NCBI GenBank assembly: GCA_050485685.1
Contig: JBJHBW010000007.1
Coordinates: forward strand, 5,950-69,949
Length of the DNA stretch: 64,000 nt
Direction of reading: 5' to 3'
Origin: Gammaproteobacteria bacterium
GTDB taxonomy: Bacteria; Pseudomonadota; Gammaproteobacteria; Steroidobacterales; Rariloculaceae
The position numbers and the translations under genes were made by a program. Positions within the stretch are counted from its first letter, which is position 1. Every line of letters begins with the position of its first letter. Below are positions 16,295 to 21,992 of the stretch, in pieces. The notes under the pieces were generated by a model that was given only the letters and a program-made list of their open reading frames with translations, ran no database searches and was not told the DNA's origin.

Positions 16295-17275
16295 ATGCGC
16301 GAAAGAGTCGCGGCCCGGGGATTTCCCGGCACTCGGTGGATTTTCGGCGCAGTGCTGCTCCTTGCTGTGTCCCTGTTCAATCCGTTTGCAGTGTCCGCTC
16401 TTGCGCAGAACCCCGGCGATGAGCACGCGGCTGCCTACGCCGGCATTGGCACCCAGGGCTGCCTGATCTGCCACGGTGCGACGGCCGGGCGCCCGGCCAC
16501 CGGGATCCTTCAGAGTCCTCACGCCGTCAGCGCCGCCGCCGGCTCGCCTTTTGCCGATGGACGTCATCAGTGCGAGGACTGTCACGGGCCAAGCGAAGCG
16601 CATCTGAGTGTTATCGACGGGGTCAGGCCCCCGCCGTCAGTGGCATTCAGTGCGCACGAGAGTGCAGCAGTGAAGGATCAGATGTGTCTTGGCTGCCATC
16701 AGCGCGAGGCCGGCGTGCACTGGAGCATCAGCGCCCACAGCTTCGGCGAGGTAGCATGTACCGATTGTCACGTATCTCATGTCGCGCAGGATCCGGTGCT
16801 GACGGCTGCCGGCGAGGCCAACGTCTGCTTCGCATGCCATGAACGTGAACGCGCTGAATTCTTCCGGCGCTCCGCGCATCCTGTCAGCGCCGGAATGATG
16901 CAGTGCACCGACTGTCATACCCCGCACGGCAGCGATGCGCCGGGCATGCTGAGTCGCGCCACCGTCAACGAGACCTGCTACGACTGCCATGCCGAGAAGC
17001 GCGGACCGTTTCTCTGGGAACACCAGCCGGTTCGCGAGGATTGCACGGCCTGTCATGTGCCGCATGGTTCAAATCATGGCGACCTGCTGGTCGCGCGTAC
17101 GCCGTTCCTCTGTCAGCAATGCCATCTTGCCGCCTTTCATCCCAGCACGGCCCTGAGCGGCCAGAACGTGCCGCCACAGGGTGCCTCACACCTGCTGCTG
17201 TCGCAGAACTGCACGAACTGCCACAGCCAGGTGCATGGCTCCAATCATCCGTCCGGTCCGGGGCTGACGCGATGA
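16295..17275 (+). CDS. periplasmic decahaem c-type cytochrome (MtrA/DmsE/MtoA/PioA family)
   Basis: RBS AAGGGGA, a signal peptide (IFGAVLLLAVSLFNPFAVSALA) and exactly ten CXXCH motifs (CLICH, CEDCH, CLGCH, CTDCH, CFACH, CTDCH, CYDCH, CTACH, CQQCH, CTNCH) in 326 aa. Confidence 0.9.
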   Translation: MRERVAARGFPGTRWIFGAVLLLAVSLFNPFAVSALAQNPGDEHAAAYAGIGTQGCLICHGATAGRPATGILQSPHAVSAAAGSPFADGRHQCEDCHGPSEAHLSVIDGVRPPPSVAFSAHESAAVKDQMCLGCHQREAGVHWSISAHSFGEVACTDCHVSHVAQDPVLTAAGEANVCFACHERERAEFFRRSAHPVSAGMMQCTDCHTPHGSDAPGMLSRATVNETCYDCHAEKRGPFLWEHQPVREDCTACHVPHGSNHGDLLVARTPFLCQQCHLAAFHPSTALSGQNVPPQGASHLLLSQNCTNCHSQVHGSNHPSGPGLTR

Positions 17276-19554
17276 CAGGCGCCGGAATACCCAGCCCCGC
17301 GAGCGCGACACCAGCGACGCCGCCGATACCACGCGCCCGGAGGCTGGCACCGCTTGCCGGTGCGATAGCACTGACGCTCACAGCCATCACGACCGCGCAG
17401 GCTCAATCCGGCAACGATCGTGAGACGCAGCGTGAGGTCACGGTGGGCCTGGGCTGGCTGGATGAGGGTGCTTTCCGATACGGACGCTATACGGGACTCG
17501 TCAGCGCCGGATTACAGCCAAGGCTCGAATTCCGCATGCGCTCCATGCCGACCTGGGACGGAGACGACACGTTCTACTGGTCGGCGCAGGGCACACGTCT
17601 GGGGCAGGACTCGCGCCGCCTCAACCTCGAGGTCGGCGACGTCGGCAGGCAGCGCCTAACGCTGGAGCTGAGGCAGATTCCGCGTTACACCAGCGACAGC
17701 TCGCGTACGCCGTTTCAGGATGTGAACAGCGCATTCCTGAGCCTGCCTGCGGACTGGGAGACCACCGGCAATACGACCGCAAACCTGCCGTCACTCGGCA
17801 CGGCCCTGGATGACGTGAATCTGCGCGAGCGGCGCACGCGCTTCACACTGGGTTACCAGCGCGAACTCGACGCCCGGTGGCATTTCAACGTGAACTACCG
17901 GCACGAGCAGAAAGATGGCCGCCGACTGCTTGGCGGCACAACCGGCAGCACCGGCGGCAACGCCCGCGCAGCACAGCTGCCGGTACCGATAGACTTCACG
18001 ACCGAAGTCCTGGACCTGGGCATCACACGCACAACCGACCGCAGCAGCGCCGGTTTTTCCTATACAGGCTCTTTTTTCCGCAACGCGCATTCATCCGTGA
18101 GCTGGCAGGTACCTTTCGGACCGCATCCTCAGTGGGCCGATGGCGTGGGCTACCCGAACGGAATCGGCCGCCTGTCGCTGGAGCCGGATAACAGTTTCCA
18201 TCAGCTCGGTTTCGCCGCCGGTCATGCATTCAGCAGCACGCTGCGAATGAACCTGGGCCTGTCGTACGGGCGCATGATCCAGGATCAGGCCCTGCTGCCG
18301 TATACCGTGAATCCTGCGCTCGATGTGTCGACAGCACTGCCGCGCAGTTCACTGGACGGCCGCGTAGACCTGACGCGGTTCAATGTCGGCATCAGCGCAC
18401 GGCCGAGCCCGCGCCTGCAGGTCAATGCCACATACCGGTTCGATGACCGCAACGACCAGACTCCGCGTGAGGCCTGGCAGCTGATTCGCAGCGACTCCGA
18501 AGACCAGCGGGTCGTGGAACTGGCGCGCCTTAACCGGCCCTACAGCCTGCGCGAGCACAGCCTGCGTGCCGACGTCGGCTATCGGGTCAGTCGCGGCATT
18601 CGCCTGCAGGGCGGCTATCGCTACACCGATCAGAGTCGCGACTACTCTGAAGTCGACAGCGTTGAAGAACACCGCTACAGCATGGGCGTGCGTTTCAGTA
18701 CGCTGGATATCCTCGCACTGTCGCTGGACCTGCTGCACGCACGCCGCAGCATCGGTGACTACGTGGGTAACCGGCCACTGATCGAGACCCGTGTGCCGGG
18801 GACAGTGGGAGAGGATGACTTCGAGAATCATCCGTTGCTGCGCAAGTACTATCTCGCCGATCGCGATCGCGACGGCGCGCGGGTGCGCGCGGACATCCCG
18901 CTGGGCAGCGGTGCCAGTATCGGCATGTCGGCTGCTTACCATCGTGATGACTATCGCAACTCCGTGTTCGGCCTCACACGCGCCAGCATGCGTACCGCGA
19001 CACTGGATGGCAGCGTTTATCCGGCTGCCGACCTGCGCCTGACGGCGTTCGTCACGCTGGACCGCTACACGAACGAACAGGCCGGCCGGTCCTTCAACGC
19101 AACACCGGCGCAGCAGCAGGACCCGGAGCGCGACTGGTGGGTCAGCGGCCGTGACCGCTTCACGACCACCGGGCTGTCGGTGGGCATGGACAGCCTTGAG
19201 CAGCGCTGGGCCTGGCTGGGCGAACGTGCCGAAGGCCGCTCCGTGGCAGCAGGGCTTGATGTGGTCCACGCCGACTCGCGCGGCGCACTGAAAGTGCGCT
19301 CAGGTCCCGCGCTGACTACGTCCGATCTGCCGCCGCTGCGCACCCGCCTGAATTTCTACCGGCTGCACGCGAGCTACCCGCTGCGCAATGATGCACAGCT
19401 TCGGTTCGCACTCGAGCACGAGCGATATCGCAGCCGCGATTTCGGCTACGACAGCGTGGCCCCGGATACGATCCCTAACGTCCTGTCGTCGGGACATGAA
19501 AGCCCGCGATACCGCGTAAACTGGGTGGTCGTGTCCTACGCGGCACGTTTCTGA
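17272..19554 (+). CDS. MtrB/PioB-family decahaem-associated outer-membrane beta-barrel protein
   Basis: Within ORF 16903..19554 I start at ATG 17272, which overlaps the cytochrome stop (ATGA). It has a signal peptide (LAPLAGAIALTLTAITTAQA), about 730 aa of beta-strand-patterned sequence and ends ...VVSYAARF. The gene order, cytochrome then porin, is typical of MtrAB/PioAB/MtoAB. Confidence 0.85.
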   Translation: MTGAGIPSPASATPATPPIPRARRLAPLAGAIALTLTAITTAQAQSGNDRETQREVTVGLGWLDEGAFRYGRYTGLVSAGLQPRLEFRMRSMPTWDGDDTFYWSAQGTRLGQDSRRLNLEVGDVGRQRLTLELRQIPRYTSDSSRTPFQDVNSAFLSLPADWETTGNTTANLPSLGTALDDVNLRERRTRFTLGYQRELDARWHFNVNYRHEQKDGRRLLGGTTGSTGGNARAAQLPVPIDFTTEVLDLGITRTTDRSSAGFSYTGSFFRNAHSSVSWQVPFGPHPQWADGVGYPNGIGRLSLEPDNSFHQLGFAAGHAFSSTLRMNLGLSYGRMIQDQALLPYTVNPALDVSTALPRSSLDGRVDLTRFNVGISARPSPRLQVNATYRFDDRNDQTPREAWQLIRSDSEDQRVVELARLNRPYSLREHSLRADVGYRVSRGIRLQGGYRYTDQSRDYSEVDSVEEHRYSMGVRFSTLDILALSLDLLHARRSIGDYVGNRPLIETRVPGTVGEDDFENHPLLRKYYLADRDRDGARVRADIPLGSGASIGMSAAYHRDDYRNSVFGLTRASMRTATLDGSVYPAADLRLTAFVTLDRYTNEQAGRSFNATPAQQQDPERDWWVSGRDRFTTTGLSVGMDSLEQRWAWLGERAEGRSVAAGLDVVHADSRGALKVRSGPALTTSDLPPLRTRLNFYRLHASYPLRNDAQLRFALEHERYRSRDFGYDSVAPDTIPNVLSSGHESPRYRVNWVVVSYAARF

Positions 19555-19628
19555 GGAAGAAAACGAGCCGCCGGGCCGACCGACGCACTTTCGCGCCACG
19601 CAGGATCCCGAGGAGGCAATAACAGAAA

Positions 19629-20966
19629 ATGGTTCGACATCGGGCAACAATGCTGCTCTGGCTGATCGCGGTTGTGCCGGGAGCAATCGCGATCGCGTAT
19701 CTGCGTGGCCCAGACCTGCAAAGCCCGGGCGCCATGCTGAATTTCGCGGGAAGGGTGACCGGTATCGCGGGCCTCGCTTTCCTGCTCGTGGCCGCGATAC
19801 TGAGCTGCCGGGTGCCGGGATTTGACCGGCCTTTCGGCGGGCTGACCAAGCTCTGGCAGTCCCACCACAAACTCGGCGGCGTCGCGTTCCTGTTTCTGCT
19901 CGCGCACCCTCTCCTGCTGGCGATCGGCGCCGCAGAAGCCTCGCTGACGGCAGCTTCGCAGACGCTGATTCCGACCACGCTGAACTGGCCCGTGATCATG
20001 GGCTGGATCGCGCTGCTCGCGATGATGGTGTTCCTCGCACCCAGCTTCAAATTCTTCGGCGAACCCGACTACCAGCGATGGCGTAATGTCCATCGACTGG
20101 CAGCACTGGCAGTGGTCACCGGTCTCGCGCATACGTTTTATCTCGCGCGCACGATACCGGATCCGCTGAACACACTGATCTGGCTGCTGCTGGCGCTGGC
20201 TGCGGTGGCCGCAGTCTCATATCGGCTTGTGTTCTCACGACGCATCGGTCGACTTCGCTATACCGTTGCCGAAGTTGCCAGACCCGCCAACAACGTCGTT
20301 GAACTTGCCCTTGCACCGCAGGGCGCGGCACTGCGCCACGAGGCCGGGCAGTTTGTCTATCTCACGCCGTTCGATCGCACCCTGAAAGCGGGGTATGCAG
20401 AAGAACACCCCTACACCCTGTCATCCGCGCCCGGCGAAGTTCATCTGCGCATTGCGATCAAGGATCTCGGCGATGCCAGCCGCGCCATTCAGCAGATCGC
20501 CACGGGCAGCGAAGTGGGCGTGGAAGGTCCGTATGGCTATTTCTTCAAGTCCCCGGAACCACGCACGCCGGAGCTGTGGATTGCGGGCGGCATAGGCATT
20601 ACACCGTTCCTCGGCCGCGCCCGGCACCTGGCAGCGCTGGCTGAGGAGCGCGGAAGCATCGGCCGGACTGCAGCCGAAGCCGACATCATTCTCGTCTACT
20701 GCGTACAGGATGAAGGTCGCCAGCTGTTCGACGACGAATTCCTGGAGTTGACTCGCGTCGTTCCGGGATTCAGGCTGGTCATGCACTATTTCTATCGCGA
20801 AGGGCCACTGTCGCACGCATTCCTGAACGAACACTGTCCGCGACTGTCCGAACGGGAAACCTACATATGCGGCCCGCAACCGCTGGTTGATGCGGCACGA
20901 GGCGCGTTGCTTGCCGGTGGTACGGGCCGCGAACGTATTCATACTGAGGAATTCAATCTCCTGTGA
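19629..20966 (+). CDS. NOX/FRE-type transmembrane ferric-reductase-domain flavocytochrome b with FAD/NAD(P)H-binding domain
   Basis: RBS GAGGAGG. Two His pairs at 13-residue spacing sit in TM helices (HHKLGGVAFLFLLAH; HRLAALAVVTGLAH). It has the FAD motif HPYTLSS and the NAD(P)H motif IAGGIGITPFLG. Confidence 0.85.
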   Translation: MVRHRATMLLWLIAVVPGAIAIAYLRGPDLQSPGAMLNFAGRVTGIAGLAFLLVAAILSCRVPGFDRPFGGLTKLWQSHHKLGGVAFLFLLAHPLLLAIGAAEASLTAASQTLIPTTLNWPVIMGWIALLAMMVFLAPSFKFFGEPDYQRWRNVHRLAALAVVTGLAHTFYLARTIPDPLNTLIWLLLALAAVAAVSYRLVFSRRIGRLRYTVAEVARPANNVVELALAPQGAALRHEAGQFVYLTPFDRTLKAGYAEEHPYTLSSAPGEVHLRIAIKDLGDASRAIQQIATGSEVGVEGPYGYFFKSPEPRTPELWIAGGIGITPFLGRARHLAALAEERGSIGRTAAEADIILVYCVQDEGRQLFDDEFLELTRVVPGFRLVMHYFYREGPLSHAFLNEHCPRLSERETYICGPQPLVDAARGALLAGGTGRERIHTEEFNLL

Positions 20967-20990
20967 GGGGATTGCTGCAGAGAGGCTGAC

Positions 20991-21350
20991 ATGAAGAAAG
21001 TGACTTTTGCGGCGTTTGTCGCGTTCTGGGCCGGTATTGTCGTCATTGTCGGCGTTGCGCAGCTTGCATCGGACCGGGCTGCTGCCGATGAGGACGCCCT
21101 TCCGGTCATCACACTGGAACAACTCGCCGAACACGATCATGACGAGTCGTGCTGGATGGCCATCGAGGGCCGGGTCTACGACTTCACCGATTACGTTCCG
21201 CAACATCCGACGCCGCCGGCGATCATGCTGGCATGGTGCGGTCGTGAAGCGACCGAAGGTATGCGCACCAAAGGCTACGGTCGCGATCACAGCCCCGCCG
21301 CCTGGGCCATGATGGACGACTACGTGGTCGGCATCCTTGCCGGAGACTGA
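20991..21350 (+). CDS. membrane-anchored cytochrome b5-like haem-binding domain protein
   Basis: N-terminal MKK plus a TM (VTFAAFVAFWAGIVVIVGVAQLA), then a b5-like domain (LEQLAEHDHDESCWMAIEGRVYDFTDYVPQHP...). It starts 24 nt after the FRE-like gene. Confidence 0.75.
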   Translation: MKKVTFAAFVAFWAGIVVIVGVAQLASDRAAADEDALPVITLEQLAEHDHDESCWMAIEGRVYDFTDYVPQHPTPPAIMLAWCGREATEGMRTKGYGRDHSPAAWAMMDDYVVGILAGD

Positions 21351-21353
21351 GCC

Positions 21354-21992
21354 CTGCCGCGAAACCCTCGCGACGCGGACGCCATCCGGGAGGATTACGC
21401 GCGCCTGGCCGCCGACTACGAACGGCGCTGGGCCGCTTTCAATTCGGCCACCCGCCACTGGGTTTACGCGCACTGGCCAGTGCTGCCCAACGACGCCACT
21501 GTGCTCGATATCGCCTGCGGCACCGGGGCCTGGCTTCAGTCCCTTGCCGCTCACTCGCCGGGATTGCGCCTGGTTGGCCTGGACCTGAGTCCCGCCCAAC
21601 TCGCACAAGCCAGGCGCAGGTTGCCCGACGCTACGCTGATCGAGGCCGATGCCGACCTGCCACCGTTCGTTGCTGACGCCTTCGATGTGATCTGTTCGCT
21701 TAACGTGCTGCATCACCTGACCGACCCCCGGGCGCACCTGCGCATGCTGGTGACCCTGGCACGACCCGGAGCCAGCGTGTTTGTCGTCACCTTTTCACGC
21801 GACCGCACACCGGCGACACGAGTCGCCAGCCGCTGGTTGCTGAGACGGCAACCGACCTGGCGACAGGTGCTGTCCATCGCCGCGTTACGTGACATGATCA
21901 GCGCGGAACCAGGCCTTGAAGTCACAGACGAGGCGGAGTTCCCCGCCGGGCGTTTCTGGTATCTGCAGGCCTGGCAGCTCAACGTGACATAA
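21354..21992 (+). CDS. class I SAM-dependent methyltransferase (start codon unresolved)
   Basis: SAM motif I is VLDIACGTGAW, followed by LVGLDLSPAQL and DVICSLNVLHHL. The first canonical start is GTG 21480. However, the same frame reads DAIREDYARLAADYERRWAAFNSATRHWVYAHWP from 21351, immediately after the b5 TGA. That looks like a genuine methyltransferase N-terminus, and only CTG 21354 is available there as a start. Confidence 0.7.
   Translation: MPRNPRDADAIREDYARLAADYERRWAAFNSATRHWVYAHWPVLPNDATVLDIACGTGAWLQSLAAHSPGLRLVGLDLSPAQLAQARRRLPDATLIEADADLPPFVADAFDVICSLNVLHHLTDPRAHLRMLVTLARPGASVFVVTFSRDRTPATRVASRWLLRRQPTWRQVLSIAALRDMISAEPGLEVTDEAEFPAGRFWYLQAWQLNVT

Follow-up and report, generated by a model that had tools for sequence, protein, structure and literature searches.

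The window analysed here is a stretch of 64,000 nucleotides from a gammaproteobacterium of the family Rariloculaceae (GenBank assembly GCA_050485685.1, contig JBJHBW010000007.1, positions 5,950 to 69,949 of the forward strand), in which four consecutive genes encode an MtrA-like decahaem cytochrome, an MtrB/PioB-like outer-membrane porin, a flavocytochrome b of the NADPH oxidase/ferric reductase (NOX/FRE) type and a predicted exported cytochrome b5. Comparative genomics and structure models suggest, with a probability that we put at about 0.62, that mtrA-mtrB-reductase-b5 encodes a single route of electron export which does not draw on the quinone pool. In this proposed chain, NAD(P)H would bind the cytoplasmic dehydrogenase domain of the reductase and reduce its FAD, from which electrons would cross the inner membrane through an inner haem (H79/H155) and then an outer haem (H93/H168). 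The outer haem would pass them to the periplasmic b5, which would hand them to MtrA inside the MtrB barrel, and MtrA would in turn deliver them to an acceptor outside the cell, such as Fe(III) or another metal, a soluble shuttle, or O2. Electrons leaving NAD(P)H for the outside run downhill, with the membrane potential as an added push, whereas inward flow would be uphill on both counts, and it is for this reason that we infer the outward direction. Since such a chain would dissipate rather than conserve energy, it would be better suited to acquiring metals, to redox chemistry outside the cell or to shedding excess reductant than to respiration.

The four genes lie closely packed on the plus strand of the window. 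The mtrA-like gene (16295..17275) encodes a predicted periplasmic decahaem cytochrome c of 326 aa, with ten CXXCH motifs and a signal peptide, and its open reading frame (ORF) matched NCBIfam TIGR03508 (DmsE family decahaem) with 264 bits against a cut-off of 192, as well as Pfam Paired_CXXCH_1. The mtrB/pioB-like porin gene (17272..19554; Pfam MtrB_PioB, 433 bits; TIGR03509, 400 bits, above cut-off) truly starts at the ATG at 17272, overlapping the mtrA stop codon as ATGA, its start and signal peptide having been read from the sequence. Next comes the reductase gene (19629..20966, 445 aa), preceded by a GAGGAGG ribosome-binding site (19610..19616) located 12 nt 5′ of its start codon. A spacer of 24 nt separates it from the b5 gene (20991..21350, 119 aa), which has its own putative ribosome-binding site (AGAGAGG, 20979..20985), 5 nt before the ATG at 20991. 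The initial annotation, made from the window alone, had reported both ORFs, their gap and the AGAGAGG site, and all were recovered in place. A scan of the window found no terminator-like site on the plus strand between the four genes.

The occurrence of the reductase-b5 pair in other bacteria was surveyed by scanning one genome per species, which gave 193 confirmed stretches, the best 80 of which were examined. The initial annotation had called for such a neighbourhood survey, and pairs were indeed found, with the reductase gene immediately 5′ of b5 on the same strand in 78 of the 80 loci and the remaining two cut by contig ends. In most cases (61/79 loci) the reductase stop and the b5 start overlapped by 4 nt, as ATGA or GTGA, which is a sign of translational coupling; the 24-nt spacer of the window represents a minority form. 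The reductase and b5 genes are thus a fixed unit, whose pairing goes far beyond chance. Comparative evidence supports well the view that b5 is the dedicated periplasmic acceptor of the reductase: the partnership put forward in the initial annotation is strengthened by how strictly the two genes are paired and translationally coupled, and by the export signal and conserved cysteine pair of b5; the electron transfer itself is the part that we infer. A single long match in a large database, P0123 (549 aa), was the only apparent fusion of the two proteins. It was rejected as a frameshift artefact, because its reductase alignment stops at residue 302 and resumes at the MKK start of b5 itself, without the NAD domain.

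The evidence that ties this pair to the outer-membrane conduit comes from gene order, which was tallied for the window and 78 loci, 60 of them informative. In 49 of these 60, mtrAB adjoined the pair, and it did so in four arrangements: mtrAB followed by the reductase and b5 genes (19 loci), the pair followed by mtrAB (21 loci), the pair convergent with mtrAB (8 loci) and a divergent order (1 locus). No mtrAB was present within at least 4 kb on either side in 11 loci, and in another 19 the contig was too short for the arrangement to be determined. When gene orders were placed on trees, they were scattered over the tree built from the ferric reductase domain (FRD) protein and b5, where the two commonest orders needed at least seven and at least five changes, and they fell into clades on the MtrA tree, one of which is a very divergent MtrAB lineage of the Porticoccaceae type. 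This pattern indicates that the pair joined at least three different MtrAB lineages, and such repeated joining is hard to explain without a functional link.

All-against-all clustering of the ORFs around the pair revealed no other recurrent functional neighbour. The remaining shared neighbours were lineage-specific housekeeping genes (such as arginine deiminase, Cu-ATPase, SLT transglycosylase, ABC1 kinase), MtrA was the sole multihaem cytochrome near the pair, and an MtrC-like gene was seen only at locus L056. In 13 Haliea-type loci, a heavy-metal P-type ATPase with YHS and HMBD domains lay a few kb 5′ of the pair (for instance, L072:3885-6206), a proximity that may be plain synteny within one genus.

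The two gene sets were also associated at the level of whole genomes. Among 400 genomes sampled evenly across the class, only 1-3 contained the b5 family, too few for an analysis of co-occurrence, and a single family was used instead, that of Wenzhouxiangella limi (Wenzhouxiangellaceae, 93 species genomes). MtrB was encoded in 50 of the 53 b5-positive genomes versus 11 of the 40 b5-negative ones (both present, 50; b5 only, 3; MtrB only, 11; neither, 29), counts that are inflated by kinship and blurred by incomplete metagenome-assembled genomes (MAGs). The initial annotation had considered the gene pair unusual independently of the upstream decahaem genes, and for this subfamily that view was mistaken, given the adjacency of mtrAB in most informative loci and the genome-wide presence of MtrB.

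Besides this inflation by kinship, several observations weigh against a common chain. Of the 40 b5-less genomes, 11 still carry MtrB, and in 11 of the 60 informative loci the pair has no adjacent mtrAB. In favour of the link, MtrB was encoded elsewhere in all seven genomes in which the pair stood apart from mtrAB (five with long flanks, two on short contigs); against it, in the four of these that were inspected that MtrB formed part of a full mtrCAB gene set accompanied by a tetrahaem cytochrome. These four genomes (L087-L090: W. limi, Haliea sp., Marinimicrobium sp. C2-29 and a Halioglobus MAG; tetrahaem cytochrome of 208-234 aa) would hold two possible feeders for one conduit. Distant pairs, with identities of 33-35% for the FRD protein and 38-44% for b5, were found at L091 (G531:C15) and L092 (G209:C37), in gammaproteobacterial genomes of 6.2-6.3 Mb. 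At these two loci there was no MtrB in the genome, no multihaem cytochrome within 8-9 kb and no other neighbour in common, from which it follows that the pair is older than its link to MtrAB and that b5 must have another acceptor there. Moreover, b5-type haems are usually near 0 mV and many MtrA haems lie lower, so that the step from b5 to MtrA could be partly uphill.

Several of these observations would also be expected if the reductase and b5 formed a self-contained system, in which MtrAB is not the acceptor and b5 reduces O2 (to superoxide), a periplasmic chelate or metal ion, or a periplasmic enzyme. The adjacency of mtrAB would then reflect shared regulation or co-transfer instead of a direct hand-over of electrons. 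We consider this explanation unlikely, with a modest chance of being right: it accounts for the near invariance of the pair (78/80 loci), for its standing alone in 11/60 informative loci and for the distant pairs in MtrB-less genomes that share no other neighbour, and it is compatible with the fact that SpNOX-type enzymes reduce O2 and cytochrome c by themselves. It does not readily explain why the pair adjoins mtrAB in four different gene orders and with at least three MtrAB lineages, nor the contrast between 50/53 and 11/40 family genomes with MtrB. The tight packing of the four genes in the window without an intervening terminator-like site, and the presence in the host genome of an operon-linked MtrAB with no other candidate inner-membrane donor, likewise speak for the four-gene export chain.

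Regarding the reductase itself, three Pfam domains were found above the curated cut-offs: Ferric_reduct PF01794 (residues 44-165, E 3.5e-13, 50.1 bits against a cut-off of 28), FAD_binding_8 PF08022 (residues 212-303, E 6.5e-9, 36.3 bits) and NAD_binding_1 PF00175 (residues 318-424, E 5.5e-9, 37.1 bits). The initial annotation had proposed a profile search naming Ferric_reduct, FAD_binding_8, NAD_binding_6 and Cyt-b5, and the outcome agreed except for the NAD domain, where the match was to NAD_binding_1. The NOX/FRE signature that it had recognised, composed of four haem-ligating histidines, HPYTLSS (260-266) and GGIGITPF (320-327), was borne out by these domains and by conservation in 28 homologues. 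The histidines form the Hx13H pair H79/H93 in transmembrane helix 3 and the Hx12H pair H155/H168 in helix 5, and all four are invariant in the homologues, together with the first two residues of HPYTLSS (H260-P261), six of the eight in GGIGITPF, C414-G415-P416 and F442. By their position in the helices, H79 and H155 are predicted to hold the inner haem, and H93 and H168 the outer one.

Hydropathy and the AlphaFold2 (AF2) model (pLDDT 90.7, pTM 0.84) both gave six transmembrane helices, followed by the FAD and NAD(P)H domains, and the positive-inside rule places both ends of the protein on the positively charged, cytoplasmic side. The best match of the model in the PDB, as found by Foldseek, was SpNOX of Streptococcus pneumoniae (8QT6, E 2e-21, TM-score 0.76/0.84), followed by DUOX1, NOX5 and NOX2, and phmmer aligned the reductase with SpNOX at E 2e-16. 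Judged by domains, motifs and predicted fold, the protein is a long-form member of the NOX/FRE ferric-reductase-domain superfamily. The host genome contains a second full-length FRD-FAD-NAD protein (C10:44853-46205; L082:3853-5205, plus strand), 27% identical to the first and with no b5 gene alongside, whose divergent neighbour encodes a UPF0093/HemJ-like membrane protein (L082:3263-3982, minus strand).

The 119-aa protein matched Pfam Cyt-b5 PF00173 with 71.1 bits against a cut-off of 23.7 (E 8e-20). The initial annotation had allowed that a profile search might place it in a non-haem family, which this result contradicts. A profile of 26 homologues searched against the PDB found 1CXY, the cytochrome b558 of Ectothiorhodospira vacuolata, at E 1.7e-33, the next matches being eukaryotic b5 at about 1e-16; 1CXY was also the best PDB match of the AF2 model (pLDDT 84), and the haem domains of the family are 54-60% identical to it. 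The predicted axial ligands are H72 (in QHP) and H100 (in GRDHS), which are invariant in the 26 homologues and coincide in the alignment with the haem ligands of 1CXY, rat b5 and bovine b5, H100 occupying the GHS/PHS position of solved b5 structures. The doubtful second ligand of the initial annotation, for which the histidine in GRDHSP had been offered as a candidate, was therefore rightly chosen. The family further shares with 1CXY two features that distinguish both from eukaryotic b5: the cysteine pair C54 and C83, invariant in the family, and a four-residue insertion before the second histidine. In 1CXY, solved in 1999, the cysteine pair reportedly forms a disulfide. The protein is, by sequence and model, a cytochrome b5 of the Ectothiorhodospira b558 type, and it is predicted to bind haem.

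Some b5-fold proteins, those of the MAPR family, bind haem without being simple electron carriers (preprint 10.1101/2021.11.17.468889), and it might be asked whether the protein serves instead as a periplasmic haem-binding or haem-delivery protein. The invariance of both bis-His ligands and the close identity of the family to E. vacuolata b558, a solved haem-containing cytochrome, make such a function scarcely credible, and they favour a role for b5 as an electron carrier.

The b5 protein is predicted to be exported, because its N-terminus (aa 1-26; 20991..21068) consists of MKK and a hydrophobic segment, with neither a twin-arginine nor a lipobox motif, and because of the conserved cysteine pair in the haem domain that follows (21069..21350; H72, H100, C54/C83 and the insertion before H100). 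Whether this segment acts as a Sec signal peptide or as an uncleaved signal-anchor is a finer matter, and the cues run both ways. The 1CXY chain, of 90 residues, begins at the equivalent of about residue 32 of b5, which points to a cleaved signal peptide. On the other side, mean pairwise identity is 0.58 over residues 4-16, compared with 0.65 in the haem domain and 0.18 in the linker, and a segment conserved nearly like the haem domain could be a retained anchor. The table published for Wenzhouxiangella AB-CW3 flags the orthologue for both (signal peptide = 1, TM = 1). On balance, cleavage is slightly favoured over retention. The initial annotation had described a single-TM, membrane-anchored protein, and the lasting anchor is doubtful.

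The family comprises 355 b5 homologues of similar length, and its named sources are Gammaproteobacteria of marine, saline and soda-lake habitats (Wenzhouxiangella, Marinimicrobium, Halioglobus, Kineobactrum, Porticoccaceae and Pseudohongiellaceae), to which the retrieved loci add Haliea and Woeseiaceae. Three loci labelled as Spirochaetaceae and Verrucomicrobiaceae MAGs (L049, L054 and L055) carry pairs that nest within gammaproteobacterial clades, a placement that could reflect mis-binning or recent transfer.

The host genome (3.2 Mb) is 96% complete, and absences from it are accordingly indicative, not proven. MtrA is its only decahaem ORF and no MtrC was found in it. Its sole NapC/NirT protein (PF03264) is encoded in a napA-napB-napC operon, and none is encoded in the mtrAB-reductase-b5 operon. 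An Mtr pathway fed in the manner of CymA/NapC/NirT, in which a quinol-oxidising tetrahaem cytochrome serves the conduit, thus does not seem to be encoded by this organism. Neither MenA nor MqnA was found in the genome, UbiA is present, and ubiquinone is apparently the sole quinone that the host makes. The potential of ubiquinol is too high for it to reduce a decahaem cytochrome of low potential, and a host that has ubiquinone and no low-potential quinol would have a rationale for a route fed by NAD(P)H.

The same conduit might be run in the opposite sense, with MtrAB working like MtoAB or PioAB in taking electrons from extracellular Fe(II) and b5 passing them to the reductase for the reduction of NAD(P)+. 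An MtrAB architecture lacking MtrC is known precisely from the Fe(II) oxidisers that carry PioAB and MtoAB (PMC5566968; PMC10654088), and Marinimicrobium is among the genera with pio/mto homologues (PMC10654088). However, general bioenergetics makes electron flow to NAD(P)+ redox-uphill at marine pH and opposed to the membrane potential, in a NOX-type protein without a known coupling device. No RuBisCO was found in the host genome, the named carriers of the module live as aerobic heterotrophs, and the proteins were detected on peptone under aerobic conditions. An inward chain is for these reasons very improbable, and outward export from NAD(P)H is the direction retained.

With regard to purpose, an iron-uptake idea comes from Sorokin et al. 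(2020; PMC7691419), whose genome and proteome table (Table S1) covers Wenzhouxiangella AB-CW3. Iron uptake is plausible by analogy with the eukaryotic FRE/FRO enzymes and gains no support here. A search of the host genome gave no FeoB above cut-off and no FTR1, so that the idea of Sorokin et al. gains nothing from this organism. Upstream sequences of the window and 68 loci, scored over 300 nt, showed no enrichment for a Fur box: the best match to the 19-bp consensus averaged 10.5/19, against 10.1 in random windows, and in the window there was no match within three mismatches. Regulation of the cluster by Fur or iron, considered as a candidate, was consequently not supported by this scoring.

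Evidence that the module is expressed comes from Wenzhouxiangella AB-CW3, in which the four genes are contiguous and all four proteins were detected in aerobic cultures (PMC7691419). On Staphylococcus cells, peptone and casein, the values were, respectively, 0.00098, 0.0080 and 0 for the reductase; 0.032, 0.065 and 0.009 for b5; 0.0042, 0.0039 and 0.0011 for MtrA; and 0.014, 0.026 and 0.004 for MtrB. Casein gave the lowest value for all four proteins and peptone the highest for three, MtrA being about level on Staphylococcus cells and peptone.

Each component resembles a known system. SpNOX (PDB 8QQ7, 8QT6) and other long-form bacterial FRD/NOX proteins have the same plan, in which FAD and NAD(P)H domains are joined to a six-helix di-haem domain and regulatory subunits are absent, and the four histidines, HPxT(L)S, GGxGxTPF and the C-terminal phenylalanine are conserved as well. 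However, SpNOX is only about 20% identical, belongs to a Gram-positive organism and is not known to have a partner, whereas the gene of the window reductase is followed by one for a dedicated exported cytochrome and linked to an outer-membrane conduit. SpNOX reduces cytochrome c directly, and Hajjar et al. (2017) questioned O2 as the true acceptor of bacterial NOX and proposed other acceptors (PMC5676040). A related principle is found in MsrQ-MsrP (YedZ-YedY), in which a di-haem membrane protein of the FRD family passes electrons to a dedicated periplasmic partner (PMC5676040). MsrQ, unlike the window protein, is a short form without a dehydrogenase domain and has a molybdoenzyme as partner, and the window reductase is a long form whose neighbours are MtrB and b5. 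An identity with MsrQ-MsrP was therefore ruled out, given the dehydrogenase domain and the lack of a molybdoenzyme neighbour.

The eukaryotic FRE/FRO proteins belong to the same enzyme family and share the proposed chemistry, with NADPH used inside and metal reduced outside (PMC3591440), but there the outer haem itself reduces the metal. In a Gram-negative cell, electrons would have to be relayed across the periplasm and the outer membrane, a task for which b5 and MtrAB could serve.

For the cytochrome, the closest relative is E. vacuolata b558, the "prokaryotic cytochrome b5", which belongs to the same subfamily and has the same histidine ligands, cysteine pair and four-residue insertion. It was characterised as an isolated soluble protein, whereas the gene context of the window b5 offers a candidate reductase and a candidate acceptor. 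To our knowledge, no physiological partner or function has been assigned to b558 since its structure was solved in 1999. Its own gene context was sought in the GTDB family around L059, where matches numbered only 3 of 53, none of them close to 1CXY. As a class, b-type cytochromes are usually cytoplasmic or membrane-bound, and those functioning outside the cytoplasm are of the c type (PMC7096707).

With regard to the conduit, CymA-MtrCAB of Shewanella, MtoAB-CymA/MtoCD of Sideroxydans and PioABC of Rhodopseudomonas all have an MtrA-type decahaem cytochrome in an MtrB/PioB porin, and Mto and Pio, like the window, lack MtrC. There, a NapC/NirT tetrahaem protein that depends on quinol, or another c-type or iron-sulfur carrier, forms the link at the inner membrane, whereas the window operon would use an NAD(P)H-dependent flavocytochrome b and a b-type periplasmic carrier. 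The feeders of MtrAB-type conduits known so far are CymA, MtoC/MtoD, PioC or cytochrome b/c fusions (PMC5566968; PMC10654088). Baker et al. (2022) surveyed mtrCAB in the same clades and did not mention a ferric reductase or b5.

A colocalisation of FRD and b5 genes has been described for the pFre gene of bacteria of the candidate phyla radiation (CPR), and was said not to be seen outside CPR (2021 preprint 10.1101/2021.11.17.468889). The CPR operons differ in having other b5 classes (cytb5MY, CBLA/B) and a two-component system. The 193 confirmed gammaproteobacterial stretches with the pair indicate that such colocalisation does occur outside CPR. Literature searches turned up no paper on a reductase-b5-MtrAB module, the nearest being the table annotation in PMC7691419 and the CPR pFre/b5 preprint.

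Downstream of b5, the window contains genes for a methyltransferase (21348-21992) and a DUF1622 protein, which recur only in loci L001 and L002. About 43 conserved N-terminal codons of the methyltransferase lie ahead of its first ATG/GTG/TTG (GTG at 21480), and they continue the b5 reading frame beyond the TGA at 21348-21350. The L001 homologue has an apparent GTG start overlapping the b5 stop in another frame, and in L002 the triplet is ATG, both being putative starts. For the window, the simplest reading is a CTG start at 21354, with GGAGA before it.

What appears to be new in this locus is that a NOX-type enzyme would have a protein as its acceptor and that MtrAB would be fed by a further kind of input, the components themselves being of known kinds. 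We know of no physiological acceptor for the bacterial NOX homologues since they were described in 2017, and the reductase-b5 pair offers a concrete candidate that can be tested. In the same way, both a candidate reductase and a candidate acceptor can now be named for the 1CXY family. As far as we know, quinol-linked, c-type or iron-sulfur carriers feed all MtrAB, MtoAB or PioAB conduits characterised so far, and a b-type periplasmic link fed by NAD(P)H would be a new input design for the conduit. A short quinone-independent chain of four genes would, in addition, have appeal as a means of connecting cells to electrodes.

The reductase, b5 and MtrAB might even amount to an NADPH oxidase built for the Gram-negative envelope, which, with the membrane potential adding to the driving force, would carry the electrons of cytoplasmic NAD(P)H across the outer membrane and would make extracellular superoxide or reduce metals directly. 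This stronger proposal has a small chance of being right. If true, the module could be one enzymatic source of the extracellular superoxide and reductive metal cycling that have been reported for aerobic marine heterotrophs, and it would be the first natural pathway of extracellular electron transfer that bypasses quinones entirely. The module is widely distributed among Gammaproteobacteria of marine, saline and soda-lake habitats and is expressed in AB-CW3, and its proposed NAD(P)H-fed input could explain why MtrAB is retained in aerobic bacteria that apparently have only ubiquinone.

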